From: Octopus vulgaris
Taxonomy: Eukaryota
Direction of reading: 5' to 3'
Assembly: GCA_951406725.2 (NCBI GenBank)
Contig: OX597825.1
Location: 68,324,001 to 68,388,000, forward strand
Length of the DNA stretch: 64,000 bases
How positions within the stretch are numbered: the stretch's first letter is position 1; every line of letters starts with the position of its first letter. The notes beneath the pieces were generated by a model. The model did not search any database, was not told where the DNA came from, and saw nothing but the letters and a program-made list of their open reading frames with translations. Position numbers and translations under genes: made by a program. Positions 968-24,270 of this stretch are shown in pieces.

Positions 968-1617
968 ATGTATCTCATCTTTCAACCCTCTGAAAGCACT
1001 GTAATTTCCTAATAGGCTATCTCATTAAGATGAATTAAATTTCAGTTTATTAATTAGATATTTGCATAAATGTCTTTACAAACAGCAACAGTTCAATATC
1101 TAAATAGGAGTAATAACTATTTCCCAGGTAGGTTGAATGAAGCATGCACATTCTCATACCCAAGATCACAGTCTAATCTAACTTAGTTATTGTACAGTCT
1201 TCTGGCTTGCCACTTTGACAGGAGTTGGGGGGCCAAGAGACTGCATCAAGCTCTACTGTCAACTTTGGCATTGCTTCTACGACTGGATGCCCTTCTTAAT
1301 CCCCAACCACTTTACAGAGTGTACCATGCCAAAGTAGATAGCTGAACCTGGCACAGTCCTCTGGTTCACCAGCTCCAGTCAAAATGTCCAACTCATGCCA
1401 GCATAGAAAACACACATCAAATGATGGTGATGGTAACATTTCTGTTTATTTACCCCTTTAGTAAATGTAATGTTTATCATGCATTATCTTGTAGTTTTGA
1501 GATTTTGATGAAGTAATTGTTTACTTTTAGAATGACATTGTAGGGTAGGTGTGAGAAGCCAGATATGGCCAGTTTCAATACTAAAGGGTTAATAATCTCT
1601 TTTAACTGTGTTTCTAA

Positions 1618-1785
<168 letters not shown>

Positions 1786-1931
1786 TAGAATTACATTGAG
1801 AGAATTGTTTCCTTCAGTTGCTACCACACACACTCACACACATACAAACACTTACAGTGATGCTTGTAAATGTCTTATCAAACACTATATATATATATAT
1901 TTCTTTTTTACCTTGATTTATTTTTTTAAAG

Positions 1932-2077
1932 AAAAAAGTTGACCCCAACCTTCAAGTAGAAGTGAAACCAAGTATTCGTGCGCGAAAGATTCAAGAAGAT
2001 AAATTACGCCGACAGACTCAAAAAGAAGAGTTTTGGAGACGAAGAGAGGCTGAGGATCGCTGGCGCGAGGAGATGCG
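1932..2077 (+). CDS. ZFR: ZFR exon
   Basis: AAG|..|GTGGGT; [49 protein letters not shown]; phases match neighbours. Confidence 0.95.
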
Positions 2078-2670
2078 GTGGGTGTGATAGTATTTTAAAA
2101 GCTGCTTTGTTCTTCAGGTGTTTTTTAATCTGCTTATGTTTTTAATGTTGGTGTCATATGAGGACCTTTTGGTTCTAGAATGTGCCATGTAACAGATATT
2201 GGTGTCTGTTCCCTAGAGAGACACCCAACTTATTTAGGGCTACATGTCTAATATCCTAGAGTTGATTCATATAATTGTACCTCCATCGAATTGAAATAAA
2301 TTCCGAGCAAGTTAAAAATGTAGAATTAGTGGGGTTTTCTTTTTTGTATTTTATTTTGTGAGAGAAAAATTTACATGGTTACTCAATTTTGCTACTAAAA
2401 ATAGCAGCTAAATCTCCCTCAAACCACATTTACTATTTTAGAAATAGGAGGTATTTGGATAATATAGTCTAGATATTGATAAATTGGTCAGTTGGTCAGC
2501 TTTTGATCTTAGTTCTACTTATTTGGGGCTGACCCAGGCATAAACAGTGTGATATGAACGGTAATTTTGGGTCCACATGGCTTGCATTTAAAATACAATC
2601 ACAACAGATTTCACACCTATATTATTGGTTATTGACTATTTTGATGTTATTGCTAAATTTGCTGTTTCAG

Positions 2671-2833
2671 AATGGAAGAGGAAATGTATTGGGGAGAAAG
2701 ACGACATTTTGAAGAGATAGACTATTACTCTCAGTGGCACCGTCGACCTGGCCATCCAGCTGCTCCTATGCCCCCTCCTCCCTTTCCACAACGTCCTGGT
2801 GCCAGCGGCCCTCTTGGAGTTGGTGCTTCTACA
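2671..2833 (+). CDS. ZFR: ZFR exon (Pro-rich linker)
   Basis: CAG|..|GTATGT; MEEEMYWGERRHFEEIDYYSQWHRRPGHPAAPMPPPPFPQRPGASGPLGVGAST. Confidence 0.9.
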
Positions 2834-2945
2834 GTATGTATTTTGCTTACTTCCTTTTTTTCGTTTCTCTTTTGTATTTAGATGTGAGAGTATTCACAGT
2901 CTGGATTGTCAATTCGGTTTTGATCCTCGTTTTCTTACTTTGCAG

Positions 2946-3023
2946 CATTTGCGGAAACCAGAGTCCTCAGATGATAGACATGTCATGGCTAAACACACCA
3001 GCATATATCCAACTGAAATAGAA
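2946..3023 (+). CDS. ZFR: ZFR exon (start of DZF region)
   Basis: CAG|..|GTAAGG; HLRKPESSDDRHVMAKHTSIYPTEIE. Confidence 0.95.
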
Positions 3024-3334
3024 GTAAGGATTTTTATATCTATATATATATATATATCTTAGAATCTTTTTTAAACCCTCATTACTCTAAACATTGTAAA
3101 CAGCTAGATTGAAATCTTGAAATCCCAGTTTAATAAGTGCAAATTGTTGCTGGCTTCTAGTTTGAATTAATACCATGATGGTTAAATTTTTATAGTGTGT
3201 TAGGACAAGCTCTATATGCTGTCACCATGAATACAAGTTTAGAAAATATTAATGGTTAAAGTAAACTGCCTGTGTAAAATCATTAGAAGTGTTTTATTTG
3301 AAAATTATTTCAATTCTTTAAATTTTTGTATTAG

Positions 3335-3408
3335 CTTCAGGCTGTTCAGAATATTGTGTCGGCATGTGAAAAAGCATTGAAGTTTGTTTCCGATCATTTG
3401 GCAGAAAG
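3335..3408 (+). CDS. ZFR: ZFR exon (DZF)
   Basis: TAG|..|GTATGT; LQAVQNIVSACEKALKFVSDHLAE. Confidence 0.93.
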
Positions 3409-3545
3409 GTATGTGTATAATAACTACTTCAGAAATAATTTTGGATTTTCACAATGTATGAAGAAAATATTTTAAAATTATATTTAAACGTATTTAACAT
3501 TTCAGTTTTTTTCTAATTCAGTTTTTTTTCTTTTCTGTTGTTTAG

Positions 3546-3614
3546 TGACTTTAGTCCAAAGACAGAAGAAATTTCAGCTAAAGAAATAAAGAAAGAGGGA
3601 GCAGCAAAAGATAG
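3546..3614 (+). CDS. ZFR: ZFR exon (69-nt symmetric, charged loop)
   Basis: long pyrimidine tract TAG|..|GTAACA; DFSPKTEEISAKEIKKEGAAKD; phase 2-2. Confidence 0.8.
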
Positions 3615-3671
3615 GTAACAATATATTTTTTATCAGTTTTATTAAAAATCTTAGTATCGGAACGTTGTTAA

Positions 3672-3932
<261 letters not shown>

Positions 3933-4090
3933 TAACAAAGTTCTTTTTAAATACTATAGGTTGAGAAACTCTAGTCAAATGAATTGTCTTCGGTGTATTA
4001 CTGGTATTTATAAAATAAGTGTAAAATAAATTTGACCGTAGGATGACTTTCCACCAAATACTGAAATTATCTGCATTGTTCGACCTTTTT

Positions 4091-4320
4091 TATTTCTTTA
4101 TTGCCCACAGGGGGCTAAACATAGAGGGGACAAACAAGGACAGACAAAGGGATTAAGTCGATTACATCGACCCCAGTGCGTAACTGGTACTTATTTAATT
4201 GACCCCGAAAGGATGAAAGTCAAAGTCGACCTCGGCGGAATTTGAACTTAGAACGTAGGGGCAGATGAAGTACTGCTAAATATTTCGCCTGACGTGCTAA
4301 CGTTTCTGCCAGCTCGCCGC
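4091..4320 (-). mobile_element. SINE family B, full length
   Basis: reverse complement of the family consensus; flanked by ~135-bp direct repeats. Confidence 0.88.
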
Positions 4321-5622
4321 TATAGGTTGAAAAACTCTAGTCAAGTGAATTGTCTTCAGTGTATTACTGGTATTTTATAATGTAAAATAAACTTGATGAA
4401 CGTAGGATGACTTTTCACCAAATACTGAAATTATCTGCATTGTTCGACCTTTTAGCATTTAGATTACTTTGTCAAATGTATCATTATCATCATCATTCAG
4501 CATCTGCTTTCCATGCTGATATGGGTTAGACAGTTTGATTGGAACTGGTAAGCACCAGGTTCCAATCTGATTTGGCATGGTTTCTACAGCTGGATACCCT
4601 TCCTAATGCCAACCACTCCAAGAGTGTAATGGGTGCTTTTTACGTGCCACCTACTTTGGTGACAGTTATGTGACACCGGCATCAGCCACATTTTCAATTT
4701 CACTTAGCTTCACAGATCTTCTCAAGCACTACATATTGCCAAAATCTTGGTCACTTATCATTGCCTCCATGAGGCCCAAACATTAGAAGGGTTCTTTTTA
4801 TGTGCCACTGGCATGGGTGTCAGTTATGTGTAATGCTTATTTATCCACATTGTTTTGAATTTATCCTGCATTAACTTGTAATGTTGAGATTTCAATGATG
4901 TGGTTGTTTATGTTCAAAGTTACGTTGTCGGGTAGGTGTGAGATGCCAGATCTGGCCAGTTTGAACATAAAGCAAGTAGAATATTTTGGCCAGACCTAGT
5001 CAGTTTGAATGCTAAACGGTTAATGGTTGTAAAACTCTCATTAATGTATCTATCCAACCAGCCATCCTCTATTCTTTCTCTAATCATCTTGTACCTTGTT
5101 TCCACCATCCTTGCTTTCATTTCTGCTGTAGTAGCTATTTATCTCCCTTGTGGCTAAACCTGTTCTTGTCTGTCTTACTCTAGGCACAAAGCCACCTCCC
5201 TTAATTCTGCACCCCCACTCTATCAAGTGGTTTTGTCTTGCAAGTTACTTGATGGCCTCAGTAGTGTTGAGAAAATAGCACTAGTACACTTTGGAAAGTG
5301 GTTGGTGTTAGTAAGGGCATCCAGCCATAGAAACCTTATCGAAGCTGACACTGAAGACCAATGCAGCCCTCAGGCTAGTTGGATCCAGTCAAACTGTCCA
5401 ACCTGTGCTAGCTTGCCAGTTCCTGTCAAACCATACTACCCATGCCAGCATGGAAAACAGGCATTAAATGATGATTTGATACATGACACTATTGCTTTAG
5501 ATCAAACATTTTCTGACCTTTTTTAAAAATAAAAATTAGGATGTTGTTAACGTTACTCACCTATCTAATATTGGTAACCAATATAATTGTTGCTGTAAAA
5601 CTAAGTGCATTTTGATTTCCAG

Positions 5623-5764
5623 ACTGTCACAGATGAAAATTACGAGCTGAGACGGTGCGTTGAAGAAGCTGCTATAATTGTGACCAGTGAGAAAGAGCCC
5701 AAAACTTCTTGTACAGTCACTTTGACTTCACCAGTGATGAGGGAAACTAACTTATCTGAAGGAG
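5623..5764 (+). CDS. ZFR: ZFR exon (DZF)
   Basis: CAG|..|GTAACC; TVTDENYELRRCVEEAAIIVTSEKEPKTSCTVTLTSPVMRETNLSEG. Confidence 0.95.
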
Positions 5765-8517
5765 GTAACCAAGATGTGCTACTAGTGACAAACTTCTCTA
5801 AACTTGTCTTCCACTTCATAAGTGCCATCTGGATTATTTCTTGTTTCTAAATTTTCTTTAAAATTTAGATACTTTTTCATCGCATTGATTTTTTTTTTTT
5901 ACTTGAAATTATTAAAGTTTACTTGCTTTCTGAATATAGGCCTTCATAATTCTACCAGATAGCTAATTGATTAGGTTGTATTAATTTTTTTTTTTTTTAA
6001 TTATTATTTAATGTAGCTGAGATAACATTTTCTAGTTGAAGATTTTAATGCTACATTTTAAAGTACCTAGGTTTTCTTTATGATGAAATATTTTAGGAAA
6101 TTCTAATGAGGGTAGAAGAATAGTGAAATCTTTGTTATTCTGTGTACTCATAACTTTAGGGTTGAATTAACCCCTAGATTAATTTGACTTTGTTGCTAAC
6201 TGTAGAGTTAGCAACTCTATGTGTACTAAATGTTGTGCTGTGAACTCTGAAAAGTTTTGCAGTTGGAAATAGTGAAATTAAATTTTAGAATTGTAATTAG
6301 TCATAGATTGATATATTTTTGTCTTAGTTGTCTTAACAGATTTTTTTTTTTTTTTTTGTTAGAATTTGATATATATGCCTTGTGACTGACTCTTTTCTTT
6401 TTACAGGCAGGAGAAAATACTAATTTATTACAAATCTCTTCCCCCACAAACAAACATACACATACACGCACATGTATGTATGCACATAGAGAGAACTAGG
6501 AGCTATATATTGATTAATACTTTTTTTTTTTTTGTGCTTAGAATATTGAGATTGTATTCTCAATGGTTTTGATTTATATATCCTTAGTGTTTTAGTCAAT
6601 TTAATTCTCCACATTTAATGATAGGCTCTGAAACTACCCATAAATTGCAACCAAACAAGAGATGAAAATTTCAGGAACATTCTCTTTATGTATCTAGAAA
6701 AACAAAAGTAAATTTATTTTATAAATTTCATCTGTTGTGTTTATATTTTTAGAAATAGTATAATTAGCAAGAAAAAAAATTACTTTGTTTTTTTTTCTTT
6801 GTTTTTTAATTAAATTTAATTACCTTTTATTTTTCAAAGCTTTTGAAATGATTACATGCAGCTACTGCCTAAAGATAATGTATTTCTCAGGAAATTATTG
6901 CTAATGTAACACAAGCCGGACCGATCCATTTTTCATTTGTATACAATATACATTGTGATATCACCCAGACCCTTTACTGGGTCAACAGCTACAATACAAT
7001 CAAAGGCTTGAGAAGTAAAGTCAGACCTGAGAACATTGAGTTTATTCTTGAGAGGTTTGTCCATAAAAGACTGAAGTTATTTATTTATTTATTAGATCTC
7101 AGTGGGTATGGAAGTTTTGTCAAACCGTTTGTGAAATTACACCAGAGAATTAACTGCTATGTATGGAATTTTTTTTTCTTTCTTTCCAACGGAGGAGAGC
7201 TTGAGTGTAACAAACCTGAATTGAAGTAAACTGTGGTAAATTATTGTTTTCCGATATCTTCCAGTGCTGGTTGAGTGAAGGATTAATTGTGATGACTGCC
7301 TTCTGTAGTCTTTTTTTAGCCAATCAACTTTAAAATTGGTGGACATTGTCTCTGACAGTATGGTAATGTATTATGAATGGCAAGGGCACAATTTTGAAAC
7401 CTAGCTACCATCATTGTACCCCTTGCCTTTGTTGTTTTGAATATGTCACACCTATTTCACAATAACATTAAGCATCTTTTTGCAGAATTATTTAGAAGCT
7501 TAGGTTAGAGTTAGGGGTTTATTTTAAACAACACATGTAAACTTTAAAAAATAAAAGGTTTTGCAGAAAGTTAACTTTTCATCAATCCTATAAAAGTTAT
7601 TGGCTGATATTTACTTTTGTTTTTGTTTGATTTTTCTAAATTTTAATAATAATACATCTTTTTGAATGAATGTTCACATTAAAATCTACCTTTGTTTGCA
7701 ATTTGTTGGTAAATGTGCCCTCTTGTATCACTGAGAATACAATTTCAATGATGTTTTCTTTTTTTAGAAATTGTTTATGTATTTAAGATGCTTTTATCTA
7801 ATCCCGTTTCGTGCCAAGCCTTTTACATGTCACCAAGTGGCGAAAGGATGAAGAGAATGGAAGGATTTTTGATCATGGCTTTATGGATCATGGCTTTATG
7901 GGTGACTGGATGATGGCATTCCTCTCTTTTATTCAGTTAATTTTTTTTTTTTTTTTTCAAATTACATTTCCCTTTGTGATTATTCTACTCATTAATTAAT
8001 TTTTTTCAAAAAGCTGTTTCACTGAAAATTTAAATTTTCACCAGCTACTCTTCATTCTCCAAAATGATTTTATTTTTATCTCCTCAATTTTTCTGTTGCA
8101 TTCCATTATCTCTCCTTCGCTTCAGCCCCCAATTTAACAAGTTCTATTGCTTTGAATTACTTTATTTGCTGTAAACTACAGAAATTTTCACTCAATCTTT
8201 CTCTTCTTTCCAACATGTTTTTTTTATTTAAATTTCCATATTTTTTTTTATTTAAATTCCCCTTTCAAAATTTTTTTCTTCAACGTCATCGGCCCACATA
8301 GCAAATATTTTTTGTTGATAAATATCAGCCCACCTTTTTCCCCCCCAACCTTTTTCAAAATCTAATTTGCATGTTGTCGAATCCATTATTTGTGGTGCAA
8401 GTTGCCAATATGGCATCATTCCATCTCCATAAGCCATGTGACAGGTTTAAATCCTGAGAGTCTATGGTCAAACACCCATTCCAACATCACTGACATCTGC
8501 ATCATCATTGTTTATAG

Positions 8518-16864: not shown

Positions 16865-17041
<177 letters not shown>

Positions 17042-18653: not shown

Positions 18654-18718
18654 CTGGCGGAGAGAAGAAAGATAAGAGAGAAAGTGATGGAGACCTAAAT
18701 CAGGAAATGACTGATTAG
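18654..18718 (+). CDS. ZFR: ZFR last coding exon
   Basis: long T tract CAG|; AGGEKKDKRESDGDLNQEMTD then TAG at 18716-18718; KKDK resembles the ZFR C-terminus. Confidence 0.9.
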
Positions 18719-20705
18719 TTCCACATTAGACATTCTAATCCATTCCTGCTTTCCACATAATTCTCTTCTGCTTATTCTTATTCATTTTTTTTTTTCTTTT
18801 ACTTTTATTTTCTCCCTTTTTTTTTTCTTTTTATGAATTCTTAAAAACCTTTCATGCCAGTAGATTCTGCTTTTAATACATTTTGACTGTTGAAGTCACT
18901 CACCTAATTAAAAAGAATTCTTTCTATGCAGTCAACACTCCTGCTGTTTTCTTTCTTTTTATCATGTTCTTTGTTCTATTTAGATTTCAATACCAATAAG
19001 CAAGCAGCCGGTGTTTCTCTAATGTTTATTTGGTTATTGGTACGCCTCCTGTTGTGGTGTGTCCACTTTTTGACTATCCCTCTATTCAACACTTACAATC
19101 AGCTGACACCCATGTTTGTGAGATAACAACAGAACCAATCTCCTCTGTACATAATTTCATGTCACATATCTGGAGTGGGGCAATGGTTGGAAGCACTGCA
19201 ACCCTTATCGCTATCACACTCCTTTCACTGATCACTCCTTCTGAATTTTATTTCAAATATTTCACTACATTAGGATTTAAAAGATAAAAGAAATATTCAT
19301 TTCTTACTTCAAACATATCAGTTAGATGATATCTGGGGTTTATTTTGTTGTTTTGTTTGTCTTGGTATTTTAAAATAATTAAAAATGTTTTGAAGTTTTT
19401 CAATAGTACATAAAATTTTCTGTATTAAAAGTCTTTTGATCTGAGTTAAACTGTTATACTGCTAAAACCAGTTCAGGTGTTATTTTCTAAGAAATCCCAT
19501 TGTCCACACTATCTGTTCTTCTCCCTTTCTTCATAGGTTTCATTTATTTACATTGTAACTTATCCAACATTTAAAAAAAATATTTTAAGACTCATTTCAA
19601 GGGTTGTTTAATAATGTAGAAGCATTATTAAATGCTAGAAGCTGACCCTTTCGCAGCTATAATAATAGCTGGCAGTTTTTTGTTTTGGTTAACTTTGTAT
19701 TTGCAACTTGGGCTAGTTGCATTGTCTTTGATAGAGGTTGGGTGCTAGAGTAGATGTTATTCTGAATAGTGGGGTTTAGACAGCTTTGCTTGTCGACACT
19801 GCAAGCTGCTCTGAAGAAAAGGCACTCTGTGGGAGTCTGATTTCCAAACAGTTATATTTTAAATGGTATTAACTCCTTGTTGCCACTATCTGCACCTAAA
19901 TATTTATTCTAGAATTAAAAGCTAAAAACTTTGTCTCACTGACATTTCAGAACAAAAGCTCTCCCAGCTTTTGTTCTGGTGACAAAATATCAGCGTAATG
20001 TGTTTAGAAAAAAAAAGTTCACTGATGTTTTTATTGATACCATTTGTAATTATCTTGGGGTTTTGAAAGTCTTCAGACTGCAAGAAAACAAGATTTCTCT
20101 TATATTGCAAAAAAGAAAGATTTTTTTTTTTTCCTTTTGGAAAAAAAAAAAACAAACAAAAATCAATATTTTTGTTTCTTCTGTATTCTTAAATATTTTA
20201 AAATTGCCAGCTTTATATAGAAAAACAAATACCCAATGCAACAGACATCTACACACAAGTTTTCCTATTCTAGTGCCCTCTGAGAAGGCAACCCCTACCC
20301 CCTAATCTCAATCAGTTAGTAGCATAGTCTTGAAAATGATACCTTTTCAACGAAATTTCTACAACTTAACCCTTGGCTTTAAAAATTGTTTTAGAAGCAC
20401 CAAATATAGTTTACATGGTCATGCGATTGAATTCCTTGGCCCTATTTTTCTACAACAGATCGCTATTTAGTTTTGCTAAATAGTGATAACACACCCCCTA
20501 TGAACTTGCTAATTAGTTGTCTTTCAAAATCTACCTGAAAGTAAATGATAGTGCATTGTGAAAAAACAACAAAAAAAAAATAAAGCAAAACAAAAAAAAT
20601 TTACTGTGTACACTACTAGCTTGTAATCTCAACTAATATTTGATTGTATAAAATACTTGAAACTCCCCACCTCCAAACCACACCCTCTACCAAAACAACA
20701 CAAGT

Positions 20706-21002
20706 TATATGTATGTGTGTGTGTGTGTGTATATATATACACACACACACATGTATCTGTGTGAATGTGTGTATACATACATATTGGTATGTGTACATTG
20801 TGTGCGTGTATATTATATATACATGTGTACATATATATATTATATATACGTATATGTATATACATATATATATACATTATATATATATGTGTATATATAT
20901 ACATGTGTGTATATATGTATAATATATATATACACGTGTGTATATACATTATATATACATTATATATACATGTGTGTGTATATATACATTATATATATAT
21001 GT
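20706..21002. repeat. compound (TA/TG/CA)n microsatellite in ZFR 3' UTR
   Basis: alternating purine-pyrimidine low complexity. Confidence 0.9.
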
Positions 21003-21327
21003 AGAATTATGCATCAGCTTATGCCAGAAGCTGACCCTTTCGCAGCTATATTTTCTCCCTTTTACCTTTCTATTTTTGTTGGAAATATGAATATATAAAT
21101 ATATTTTAATGTGTGGTTATGACTTTTTCAGTAAATTGTTTCGTTTTGCTTTTTTTCCCCTCCCATTCAATGTAGTGTCACCTGAGATTTTAGGGATTTC
21201 TTTTTTTTTAAGGAAATTATAGAGACTTACACATTAGTTTTTTTTGTTGGTTTTTCTTTTTTTTTTTTTAAAGAAAAAAAAAAAGAATTTCTCTCATTTA
21301 TTGAATATTGAATGTATTTTAAGCAGA

Positions 21328-21333
21328 AATAAA
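21328..21333 (+). terminator. candidate ZFR polyadenylation signal AATAAA
   Basis: AATAAA followed by T/GT-rich sequence. Confidence 0.55.
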
Positions 21334-21489
21334 CTTAGTTTGTTGAACATAGATGTTTTCATTATTTAATCCATCTGCATGTGTGACTTTTAAATGTGAT
21401 TTCTTGGTTAAATCTTATTACCAACAACTCAAATTTTTAAGAAATTGGTTGATGCCTAAAACCAGGTTTGTAGTAAATTTCCTCTAAAA

Positions 21490-22036
21490 CAGGGATTCTC
21501 AACCATTTTTTACCCATGGACCACTTTAACCCTTTTCTTACCAGCTCTGGCTCTGTTGTACAGATGTCTTATTTTCATAAGTTTTGAATTAAAATCTTCC
21601 ACCAAACCTTAGTCACAATTTATGTTCCTAACACTAGCTGAATGATAACTAAGTTATTTTACTAAATTCTTTGTTATAAAGTAACTGAAAGAAACACACA
21701 GCATCTCAAAATAAATACAGTCAGTAACGAAAGGGTTAATTACTATTATATTCTGGTGGATCCTGTAGCCATTCGATGTTTAAAAGTTTTATAGAATCTT
21801 CTTTCAGAATTCCTATTTTGTTTTTCACACATTCACTTGTGTAGGTTGAACTACGTGAAATGTTTGAGAAAGAAGCCTTGCTGTGTCTTGCAATACATAC
21901 ATCTAAAGTAGAATTTTTTTCAAGGGCTCTTAAAATACTATTGTGGATTCCCAATTTACTCTTTTATTGCATGGACCCCCAAAAATCTTATAGGGTCTCT
22001 CTCAGGGGCCATATGGACTCCTGTTGTAAACCCCTA
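21490..22036. mobile_element. hAT MITE with nested TTAA MITE (21530-21735)
   Basis: CAGGG.. ends; 8-bp TSD CTCTAAAA/CTCTAAAT. Confidence 0.8.
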
Positions 22037-22149
22037 CTCTAAATCATTATCTTCAGTGACCTCACAACTATCTATCTCTAGTGTATGTATTTACTGTTAC
22101 TTATTTCATCATTTGACTGCGGCAATGTTGGAGCACCGCTTTTAGTTTC

Positions 22150-22445
22150 CATAAGCGGAAAGTTTAACCTCTCAAAAGAGCTGTTCTTCACTCCTGCTCC
22201 AGAGCATCGGCTGCGGAGTCACTCCGAAAAGCTCTATCAAAGAAGAGGGGCTTTCTCCATCCGGGTTGCGGATCTGTGGAATAAGCTGCCGGACAAGATA
22301 GTGAAGATGCCGACGACCGCTCGGTTCAAAGTCTCTCTTGACCAGAAATGGCCTGAACTCTTTGCATGAACACCCTCCCTGTACATAACTCCATGTCCCC
22401 CTACATGGCTTTGCTTTTTGAGCCAAAAAATTAACTTAACTTAAA
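22150..22445 (+). mobile_element. CR1-group LINE 3' fragment inserted in a SINE A
   Basis: LRSHSEKLY..FSIRVADLWNKLP..FKVSLD; (TTAAC)n tail. Confidence 0.75.
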
Positions 22446-22679
22446 TCGACCCCAGGACTTTTCTTGGTAAGCCTAGTACTTATTCTATCGGTCTCTCTTG
22501 CCGAACTGCTAAGTACGGTACAGTTTCCATCTACCAAATTTCATAAGGCATTAGTTAACCTATGGCTATAACAAGACACTAGGTCAAGGTGCCGTGTAGT
22601 GGAATTGAACTTGAAACTTCTTAACCAAACATACAAAGAAATCTGAAGGAAAATGGAAAAAGGTTCAATTTTAGACCAG

Positions 22680-22729
22680 TTTATTAGCAGAAAAAAAAAT
22701 TACACAATCTAAGTAGAGATTGGTTTATT
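22680..22729 (-). terminator. two candidate SRM polyadenylation signals (AATAAA at 22729-22724 and 22685-22680)
   Basis: TTTATT on + strand ~85 and ~130 nt past the SRM stop. Confidence 0.55.
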
Positions 22730-22812
22730 GAATATATATTTTCCAGATGAGACAACTTTTTTTTTTCTCCATGTAATGAATATGACCATTCCAAAAAGGA
22801 CTGTCTTTACAA

Positions 22813-22827
22813 TCACTGCGACAATGC
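22813..22827 (-). CDS. SRM: spermidine synthase last coding exon (ALSQ*)
   Basis: TTTATTTCCAG|GCA TTG TCG CAG TGA; parallels the short terminal exon (ALNDVS*) of human SRM as recalled. Confidence 0.82.
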   Translation of the reverse strand, partial: ALSQ

Positions 22828-22871
22828 CTGGAAATAAACAGATTCATTAATAAATAATAAAAGAAATATAG

Positions 22872-23076
22872 GTGAGGTATATTTGCCATCTCAATATGGC
22901 TAACCACTAAGGGTAGGTGTTGCTGTAGCTTGTAGCCCCAGGAGAACATCTCCTCCAGCTGGTTATAGACACACTTTCTGTGCCCTATCTATAGCCAGCT
23001 GGAGATGTTCTCCTGGGGCTACAAGCTACAGTAACACCCACCCTTTAGCCATATTGAGATGGCAAATATACCTCAC
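22872..23076. repeat. 205-nt near-perfect fold-back (inverted duplication), flanked by 15-bp direct repeats
   Basis: GTGAGGTATATTTGCCATCTCAATATGGCTAA ... TTAGCCATATTGAGATGGCAAATATACCTCAC; TAAAAGAAATATAGG at 22858-22872 and 23122-23136. Confidence 0.9.
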
Positions 23077-23975
23077 ATTGTCGTGCAATTACTGTTTATA
23101 TCTCGTTCAGAGATTTATTATTAAAAGAAATATAGGGATGATAATAATAATAAAAGAACAACAACTTGCTGCTGCAAACTGTACTTGAACACTAGACTCC
23201 TGGGTAGAAGGCTGCATTCAAACTGATGATATCCAGTCTAAATAGTCTACCTGTTTTATATTCAAACCAACTAGATGTAGCATCTCACACCTATCTTACA
23301 ACATCCTTCTCAGAATAAGCAATCATCATTTAGTGTCTGCTTTCCATGCTAGCATGGGTTGGACGGTTCAACTGGGGTCTGGGAAGCCAGAAGGCTACAG
23401 CTGGATGCCCTTCCTAACACCAACCACTCCATGAGTGTAGTGGGTGCTTTTTACGTGCCACCAGCACAGGTGCCAGACGGGGCTGGCAAACGGCCACGGT
23501 CGGATGGTGCTTTTTACGTGCCACATCATGAAAATCTCAAAGCTACACGATAATACATGATTAATTTTTTTTTTAAATGTGAATAAATAAGTATTACATT
23601 TGACAGGCTAATCTAAATGCTAAATGGCTAATAATACTTCAGAAATAACAGTCAGGTATTTGTTAAAAGGAACAACAAAAAACAAATAATTATAGCAACA
23701 ATATCTATTTCTTTACTACCCACAAGGGGACAGACAAACGGATTATATCGACCCAGTGCGTAACTGGTACTTATTTAATCGACCCCGAAAGGATGCTTGG
23801 ACCCATATATACACACACACATATATATATATACGAAGGGCTTCTTTCAGTTTCCGTCAACCAAATCCATCACAAGGCTTTGGTCAGTCCGAGGCTATAG
23901 TAGAAGACACTTGCTCTAAGTATCACACAGTGGGACTGAACTCAGTGGGACTTACCACAGAGCCACTCCTGCGCC

Positions 23976-24016
<41 letters not shown>

Positions 24017-24270
24017 GCACAGCCAGCCCAAGCCGGTAGTGCAATCAAGACACTTGCTCAAGGTCCCACACAGTAGTGGGACTGAACTCAAAACCACGTA
24101 TTTTACAAGCAAACTTCTTCTCCGAACAGCCAGCCTGCACTTTATCAAATACACTATTCCGCTCTAGAAACTGGACTTCTGTATTAGCTGCTACATAAAA
24201 AAAAAAACATCAAGTTTAAAGACGGAAGAAAAGCTGAAATGAAGAAAATTATGATTGGAAGTATAATTAC

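Follow-up and report, generated by a model that had tools for sequence, protein, structure and literature searches.

Gene context of the repeat pair

The window analysed here is a stretch of 64,000 nt of Octopus vulgaris DNA, in which two genes lie tail to tail: ZFR on the plus strand and a spermidine synthase gene on the minus strand, with about 5.4 kb between their stop codons (window 18719-24190). The exon at 16898-17032 was 100% identical to proteins from Octopus species that are named ZFR, and in a tblastn search the ZFR protein mapped in full, beginning about 12 kb ahead of the window and ending with the stop codon at 18716-18718, which bears out the gene assignment of the original prediction. 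Based on protein identity, tblastn and a splice joint, the penultimate coding exon, belonging to the C-terminal DZF region, was placed at 16898-17033 (+); the coding part of the last exon was placed at 18654-18718 (+) by tblastn and the same joint. A 2520-nt contig of run X18 contained this GT-AG joint (17033/18654) and continued through the first copy of the repeat (copy 1, exact core at 19637-19661) up to 20690; the joint was also present in run X5. Since the X18 contig spans the joint and reaches 20690, copy 1 lies in the spliced 3' UTR of ZFR. For the second copy (copy 2, exact core at 21026-21050) we infer a position in the same UTR, since the contig passes an AATAAA at 20579 and heads towards a microsatellite, and the next plus-strand hexamer follows at 21328. 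The 3' UTR (18719-21350, +) is thus covered by the spliced contig to 20690, while the remainder would extend to the AATAAA at 21328-21333, with a putative 3' end. In the runs presumed to be RNA, at most 0.85 of the words of 19400-21400 were found, and only 0.81 of the words start before 21000, which is a weak hint for copy 2. The placement of the repeat in the ZFR 3' UTR, as proposed originally, is therefore established for copy 1 and probable for copy 2. In the literature searched, neither a ZFR 3' UTR element nor the repeat motif was found to be described.

For spermidine synthase, the last exon has a probable start at 24187 and codes for 7 residues. As the exons of this gene are all on the minus strand and stop close to that position, the repeat could also be an element of the convergent spermidine synthase 3' UTR, read on the minus strand, and in isolation the two strands of copy 1 fold equally well. 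However, copy 1 is found on the spliced ZFR contig, and four minus-strand AATAAA (23119 to 21968) as well as several transposon pieces lie between the spermidine synthase gene and copy 2, so that this explanation is very improbable. The window also contains, at 22872-23076, a MITE-like element whose terminal inverted repeats are long; a relative in another genomic stretch (L060) has a 10-nt word in common with the motif, probably by chance.

Sequence and uniqueness of the repeat pair

Both copies are oriented on the plus strand and lie 1389 nt apart. The 25-nt core is exact, and in 100 shuffles of the window no exact 25-nt match was obtained; including the preceding ATGCY, the identity amounts to 29 of 30 nt, exactly as first described. 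In the 2.8 Gb genome of O. vulgaris the 25-mer occurs twice, both in an exact search and with up to 3 mismatches, which agrees with the earlier view that it does not belong to a high-copy repeat. The search for the motif in other genes that had been suggested gave no further members: genome-wide, no third member of the family was found at 3 mismatches or even with the second loop left free. A gapped genome search with the motif gave two additional matches, one in the end of a MITE and one at chance level. Metagenome contigs contained no exact 22-mer match to the 25-mer and viral contigs no exact 19-mer match. As a possible long-range partner within the ZFR locus, exact complements of at least 11 nt were absent from 200 kb upstream and those of at least 10 nt from window 1-24300, and a fully complementary small-RNA gene for the motif was not found genome-wide at 3 mismatches.

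The similar blocks extend over 19614-19661 (+) for copy 1 and 20999-21050 (+) for copy 2, and their alignment comprises 53 columns, 41 of them identical. All differences are located upstream of the core. Copy 2 carries four additional bases (TTAT) between a UGUAGAA heptamer and GCAT, by which the heptamer and upstream parts of the two copies are out of register, and the 6-nt first loops differ at five of six positions, while the GCAT...ATGC around them is kept. Outside about 50 nt, the identity at the 1389-nt offset equals the background on both sides, and the similarity downstream of the core gave a p of 0.12. Over the approximately 20 nt upstream of the repeat the similarity is borderline: an anchored gapped alignment upstream of ATGC resulted in p values of 0.04-0.24 for five scoring schemes (126-731 of 3000 samples of random octopus DNA). 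Single features chosen post hoc in this part scored better, with the shared 8-nt word present in 27-35 of 3000 random samples (about 0.01) and an equally placed GCAT in 3 of 3000. Copy 2 immediately adjoins a microsatellite of about 300 nt, which consists of TA, CA and TG repeats (20705-20998). The statement that both copies lie in unrelated, transposon-free flanks thus holds for the sequence outside the 50 nt, with the reservation of the borderline upstream similarity and of the microsatellite next to copy 2.

Three simple origins of the pair were rejected. A high-copy repeat or transposon piece does not agree with two copies genome-wide and a single-copy stretch between them (19560-20700 is single copy in the genome), a target-site duplication around an inserted element does not agree with the absence of any other genomic copy of the intervening sequence, and an old tandem duplication at the 1389-nt offset does not agree with the background identity beyond about 50 nt. 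From its place at the edge of the microsatellite, copy 2 is likely the inserted (acceptor) copy.

The core could further be a processing signal, either as branch point and 3' splice site of an alternative last exon or, in the case of copy 1, as part of a proximal poly(A) signal. Its arrangement of CUGAC, pyrimidines and CAG resembles a branch point followed by a 3' splice site, the true acceptor of the last exon likewise reads CAG/CT, and UGUA, an AUUAAA at 19627 and a U-rich downstream stretch are located near copy 1. Nonetheless, only 12 nt separate the branch-like A and the AG, a hexamer is missing at copy 2, and the X5 and X18 contigs run unbroken over copy 1 at unchanged depth. Since, in addition, no joint at 19657 was among the joints listed (contigs drop rare forms), a role in processing is hardly credible.

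Predicted folding of the two copies

The original prediction was based on a common architecture of two hairpins with conserved stems, which would be recognised by a protein. Excised at 53 nt, copy 1 indeed folds into these two hairpins. With 110-300 nt of context, the predicted probability of both was 0.00, and other helices took their place, namely a hairpin of 11 bp (19607-17/19622-32), a helix of 7 bp (19599-605/19644-50) and, downstream, a 7-bp hairpin (19654-60/19665-71), so that the predicted fold of copy 1 in context covers 19599-19671 (+). The pair probabilities of these helices were mostly 0.8-1.0, with terminal pairs down to 0.62. For copy 2, the dominant helix in context was 21014-20/21028-34 (21014-21034, +), a perfect 7-nt inverted repeat with pair probabilities of 0.44-0.90, while the first proposed hairpin reached 0.01-0.11 and the second 0.09-0.37. 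The competing 7-bp helix that had been pointed out beside each copy exists in both cases, but the shared two-hairpin architecture (0.00 for copy 1, 0.01-0.37 for copy 2) is not the fold predicted for either copy in context. The same applies to the proposed three-way form with UGUAG pairing to the terminal CUAUA, which amounted to only -3.0 and -2.6 kcal/mol for the two copies. What had been overlooked are the stronger upstream helices of copy 1 (the 11-bp hairpin and the first 7-bp helix), which remove both hairpins in the predicted ensemble.

The context fold of copy 1 had a z of -3.4 and ranked fourth among 104 UTR windows. Hairpins are common in the ZFR UTR, as 16 of the 104 windows showed a z of -2 or below, and three other regions of it (19898-20020, 20080-20200 and 20418-20540) fold equally well or better than the copy-1 region (z of -2.7 to -4.3). 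The core alone gave -5.5 kcal/mol; equally good values were obtained for 105 of 2000 shuffles and for 62 of 1958 UTR 25-mers. With the Rfam covariance models, the best hit over copy 1 had an E of 2.6, and nothing was found at an E of 10 in 20998-21100; the statement that the motif matches no described RNA element agrees with this lack of a family match over either copy.

A constrained cis-element, present twice in the ZFR 3' UTR and recognised by a protein, would most plausibly be bound by ZFR itself or a DZF partner and act as a feedback on the ZFR mRNA, where the bound protein would favour the two-hairpin form over the competing helices. DZF proteins such as NF90 are reported to bind dsRNA and 3' UTR elements (PMC4770229 and PMC11952958), which is consistent with this idea. 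Further points in its favour are the exact core with all differences upstream, the GCAT...ATGC kept around a loop that has almost completely changed, the presence of copy 1 in the spliced mRNA, and the GC content of the core of 48% compared to 32% in the UTR. The lack of a common predicted fold in context speaks against it, as does the absence of a third family member from the genome.

Natural variation and relatives

Over 18833-20690, run X5 differed from the window at 2 sites and run X18 at 5, giving 6 distinct sites. All 6 are located in the 209 nt of 19505-19713 around copy 1, and the other approximately 1650 nt comprise no substitution. The exchange 19617 T>C, found in X5 and X18, changes a G-U pair of the 11-bp hairpin to G-C and breaks the closing stem proposed originally, 19621 A>C (X5) lies within the loop of the 11-bp hairpin, and with 19669 C>T (X18) the downstream hairpin is kept as G-U. 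All three variants, which lie next to copy 1, thus agree with the alternative fold. The UGUAGAA heptamer, regarded as common to both copies, is polymorphic in copy 1, since it includes 19617 and 19621. The 30-nt core showed no variant in either of the two samples; fewer than one would be expected, and as X5 and X18 differ from the window by less than 0.3%, there is no power for a conservation test. In two runs of more distant relatives (X21 and X22), where the penultimate exon is about 81% identical, the UTR motif was not covered. This result was set aside, since in X5 copy 1 received no extra depth from a copy-2 contig, so that a match of 29 of 30 nt can probably go undetected.

For a wider comparison, 50 ZFR-family loci from metagenome contigs were used, of which 48 extended at least 40 nt downstream, resulting in 81,390 nt examined. 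In these 48 other animal loci, which are distant and often on short contigs, the best matches to the motif had 9-14 mismatches. A covariance model of the two copies, searched against 491 kb of sequence, gave nothing below an E of 0.76 outside of them. Between the ZFR UTR and the 50 other loci 49 11-mers were common, none of them in the core. Since the animals are distant and many contigs end early, the absence from these loci speaks only against very deep conservation.

The varying heptamer, the closing stem broken by 19617C, the lack of a match in the other ZFR-family loci and the result of the covariance model all count against the protein-bound element, which we consider somewhat unlikely. 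If this or another of the alternatives to a repair-made doublet were true, the repeat would represent an undescribed control element of ZFR and a small testable handle on how cephalopods tune their RNA regulators.

Candidate miR-22-family sites

The core contains GCAGCU, which we took to be a match to the miR-22 seed and then tested here. On contig C30, near 5.760-5.762 Mb of the minus strand, two mir-22-family-like hairpins were found (L072 and L073), neither of which reaches the Rfam cut-off: a mir-22/mir-980-like hairpin with 35 and 28 bits, and a second one about 1.8 kb from the first, found by seed and fold. A near-perfect hairpin elsewhere in the genome (L055:1500-1583; G000:C1:123503094-123503176) with -65 kcal/mol over 125 nt and 36.5 bits against the mir-22 model was dropped as a family member, because the family seed is absent.

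The two copies could accordingly be read as twin miR-22-family target sites dampening ZFR, in which the seed pairs with GCAGCU followed by A. The candidate site of copy 1 is located at 19646-19659 (+; seed match and A at 19653-59, 3' pairing at 19646-51) and that of copy 2 at 21035-21048 (+; seed match and A at 21042-48, 3' pairing at 21035-40). The competing helices would mask the former and free the latter, in line with a predicted masked site in copy 1 and a partly open one in copy 2. Both copies are 7mer-A1 sites for both hairpins, and the UTR has no such seed match elsewhere. With one of the hairpins, a further 6 bp form between g13-18 and CCCUUU, giving -16.9 kcal/mol, a value reached by 49 of 2000 shuffles. 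In a simulation, the probability of an equally good site for any of 138 random 22-mers was 0.4-0.6%, where 138 is an assumed number. The first hairpin can pair with the core through its other arm as well (6 of 2000 shuffles), in part because of the shared palindrome.

Besides being encoded with two hairpins, the family appears to be expressed: table S4 of PMC9699675 gives 1151-7642 reads of Ovu-Mir-22-P2_3p in six tissues. Judging from the A at position 1, this miRNA would derive from the L073 hairpin; the mature ends used here are putative. The data files of the same article, as far as described there, list target sites conserved between two Octopus species, which may bear on this reading. 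On the other side, the idea arose post hoc beside several others, the chance of a plain 7-mer site for some family is already 30%, and comparable 3' pairing is present at 6 of 86 genomic sites for the same miRNA. The geometry is poor, with an offset of -4 compared to the measured optima of 0 to +4 for 3' pairing in the data given in PMC8940178. The seed match of copy 1 is predicted to be paired (unpaired probability of at most 0.10 at six of seven positions), the site spans only 14 of the 30 shared bases, and seed matches in the other ZFR-family loci numbered 12 compared to 6.9 expected from a crude model. Altogether, twin miR-22-family sites appear quite improbable.

A combination of both ideas would be a cephalopod-specific, twofold RNA switch in the ZFR 3' UTR, in which flanking helices mask one and expose the other 25-nt docking site for the miR-22 family or ZFR; we regard this as doubtful. 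In other animals ZFR is connected with editing and splicing, and cephalopods are the animals that edit most. A switch of this kind would thus tie microRNA control or feedback to a regulator of splicing and A-to-I editing. Passages of PMC8304401 describe ZFR as a DZF protein with such a link to editing and splicing in other animals.

Doublets in the octopus genome and origin of the pair

The frequency of such pairs was estimated in 150 stretches of 10 kb plus the window, i.e. 151 pieces with 1.564 Mb. The sample is non-random, as 400 kb come from beside the window or from the surroundings of the mir-22 cluster and the remainder was taken at even steps. Exact pairs of at least 22 nt at a distance of 150-5000 nt numbered 711, of which 41 had unrelated flanks and 3 no other match in the sample: the ZFR UTR repeat, L108 and L207. 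The 27-mer of L108 (L108:5744-5770; G000:C12, 33.89-34.35 Mb) was dropped as a doublet, having 8 copies over about 460 kb, which suggests a local gene or repeat cluster. L207, in contrast, is a true doublet of 27 nt with copies 1942 nt apart (2308-2334 and 4250-4276; G000:C12:68430308 and 68432250, about 42 kb past the window), unrelated flanks and exactly two genome copies at up to 2 mismatches; a partial upstream extension of the kind seen in the ZFR pair is missing. One other doublet per 1.5 Mb corresponds to about 0.7 per Mb (95% range about 0.02-3.7 per Mb), or about 1 in 25 windows of 64 kb.

A further pair in the window (4052/4416) also has two copies and was dropped, since it lies inside a duplication of about 130 nt that flanks a SINE in a ZFR intron (3960-4089 and 4326-4453). 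This duplication has a 37-nt exact core with two copies genome-wide and resembles an unusually long target-site duplication.

Based on these data, the repeat is best explained as a genome-unique nearby doublet which was made by repair, later edited by template switching and likely has no regulatory role of its own; we put the probability of this explanation at about 0.5. A stretch of 30-50 nt was likely copied over 1.39 kb in the course of DNA break repair, in which a break at the edge of the TA-rich microsatellite would have been patched by copying from the copy-1 region. A local template switch may then have swapped one 6-nt loop for the reverse complement of a neighbouring stretch, followed by a putative 4-nt slippage insertion. 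Doublet and template switch together would give the appearance of stems kept around a free loop. In copy 1 the loop forms one arm of an 11-bp inverted repeat and in copy 2 one arm of a 7-bp inverted repeat, both perfect, so that the free loop would be accounted for by a single switch in one or the other copy. Inverted repeats lie densely at this spot: among 11728 genomic windows of 70 nt, 564 have one and 24 have two, as does copy 1. This density fits equally well to a mutation-prone spot and to selection on RNA structure.

In support of the doublet, the class is present in this genome with L207, spacing and orientation fit repair-mediated duplications, no common fold is predicted in context, both loops belong to perfect inverted repeats, the heptamer is polymorphic with all 6 variant sites grouped around copy 1, and there is no third copy. 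Since the copies are predicted to fold differently, a repair copy is likelier than a new regulatory RNA system. Against it, doublets are uncommon, and the rate is derived from one event that lies beside the window. Cis-elements are likelier in the UTR of an RNA-binding regulator. The restriction of all differences to the part upstream of the core and the kept GCAT offset (3 of 3000) would also result from selection on a stem. The absence of variants from the core in both samples, where fewer than one was expected, the density of inverted repeats (24 of 11728 windows with two) and the low family-wise chance of the miR-22-family match likewise count against it. Altogether, a neutral process that is already known is enough to explain the uniqueness of the pair, its spacing and its differing loops, and the case for a shared structure recognised by a protein weakens on testing, but the functional readings combined are nearly as likely as the neutral one.

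The original prediction saw in the pair an undescribed regulatory system, without considering short local doublets and template switching; this proposal is weakened by the missing shared fold, the polymorphic heptamer and the lack of a third member. If the repeat is a doublet, it is ordinary for this genome, in which such doublets would occur at roughly one per 1-2 Mb. It would nonetheless call for caution, since doublets and template switching can mimic a conserved RNA motif.

Comparison with known systems

Hairpins in the 3' UTR of MAT2A and other autoregulatory UTR hairpins occur repeated. In the ZFR pair, too, a short motif that can form a hairpin is present more than once, within the 3' UTR of a potentially self-regulating gene. 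Unlike the MAT2A hairpins, it has no Rfam match, only two copies and no common fold in context, and the METTL16 nonamer, in the form that we assume, is absent from the motif.

Compared to a canonical 7mer-A1 site with 3'-supplementary pairing, as outlined in parts of PMC8940178, positions 2-7 and A1 are matched perfectly and 6 bp are formed to g13-18 of one hairpin. The candidate sites differ from it in the offset of -4 instead of 0 to +4, in the unmatched position 8, in the predicted masking of copy 1 and in the 16 shared bases left unexplained.

Local template switches make inverted repeats and clusters of several changed bases without selection, according to sections of PMC5453318. As in such clusters, the substitutions in the ZFR pair coincide with a perfect inverted repeat in both copies. 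The fragments of 7 and 10-11 nt are shorter than those of the high-confidence set described there (at least 14 bp).

Nearby doublets, reported by Thomas et al. in 2004, are said to have a size range of 25-100 bp. For repair-mediated duplications, passages of PMC2671141, which cites these doublets, describe microhomology, filler DNA and a short distance between the copies: 824 of 1136 were located within 5 kb, with an apparent peak at about 1.2 kb that the authors consider a possible artefact, and the filler DNA comprised 1-68 nt. In those passages the duplications are described in vertebrates and not in a cephalopod, and the set of Pace et al. required insertions of at least 50 bp and an empty orthologous site, whereas the ZFR pair extends over 30-50 nt and also has a partly similar upstream extension. 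At the junction of copy 2, extra bases and the edge of the microsatellite are found; the altered bases at this one junction are possibly filler DNA, as in the duplications of PMC2671141. The ZFR pair furthermore agrees with the doublets and repair-mediated duplications described there in being a short, near-identical pair on the same strand, present at two loci only and within 5 kb, and as a nearby doublet it has a second example in the octopus genome with L207.
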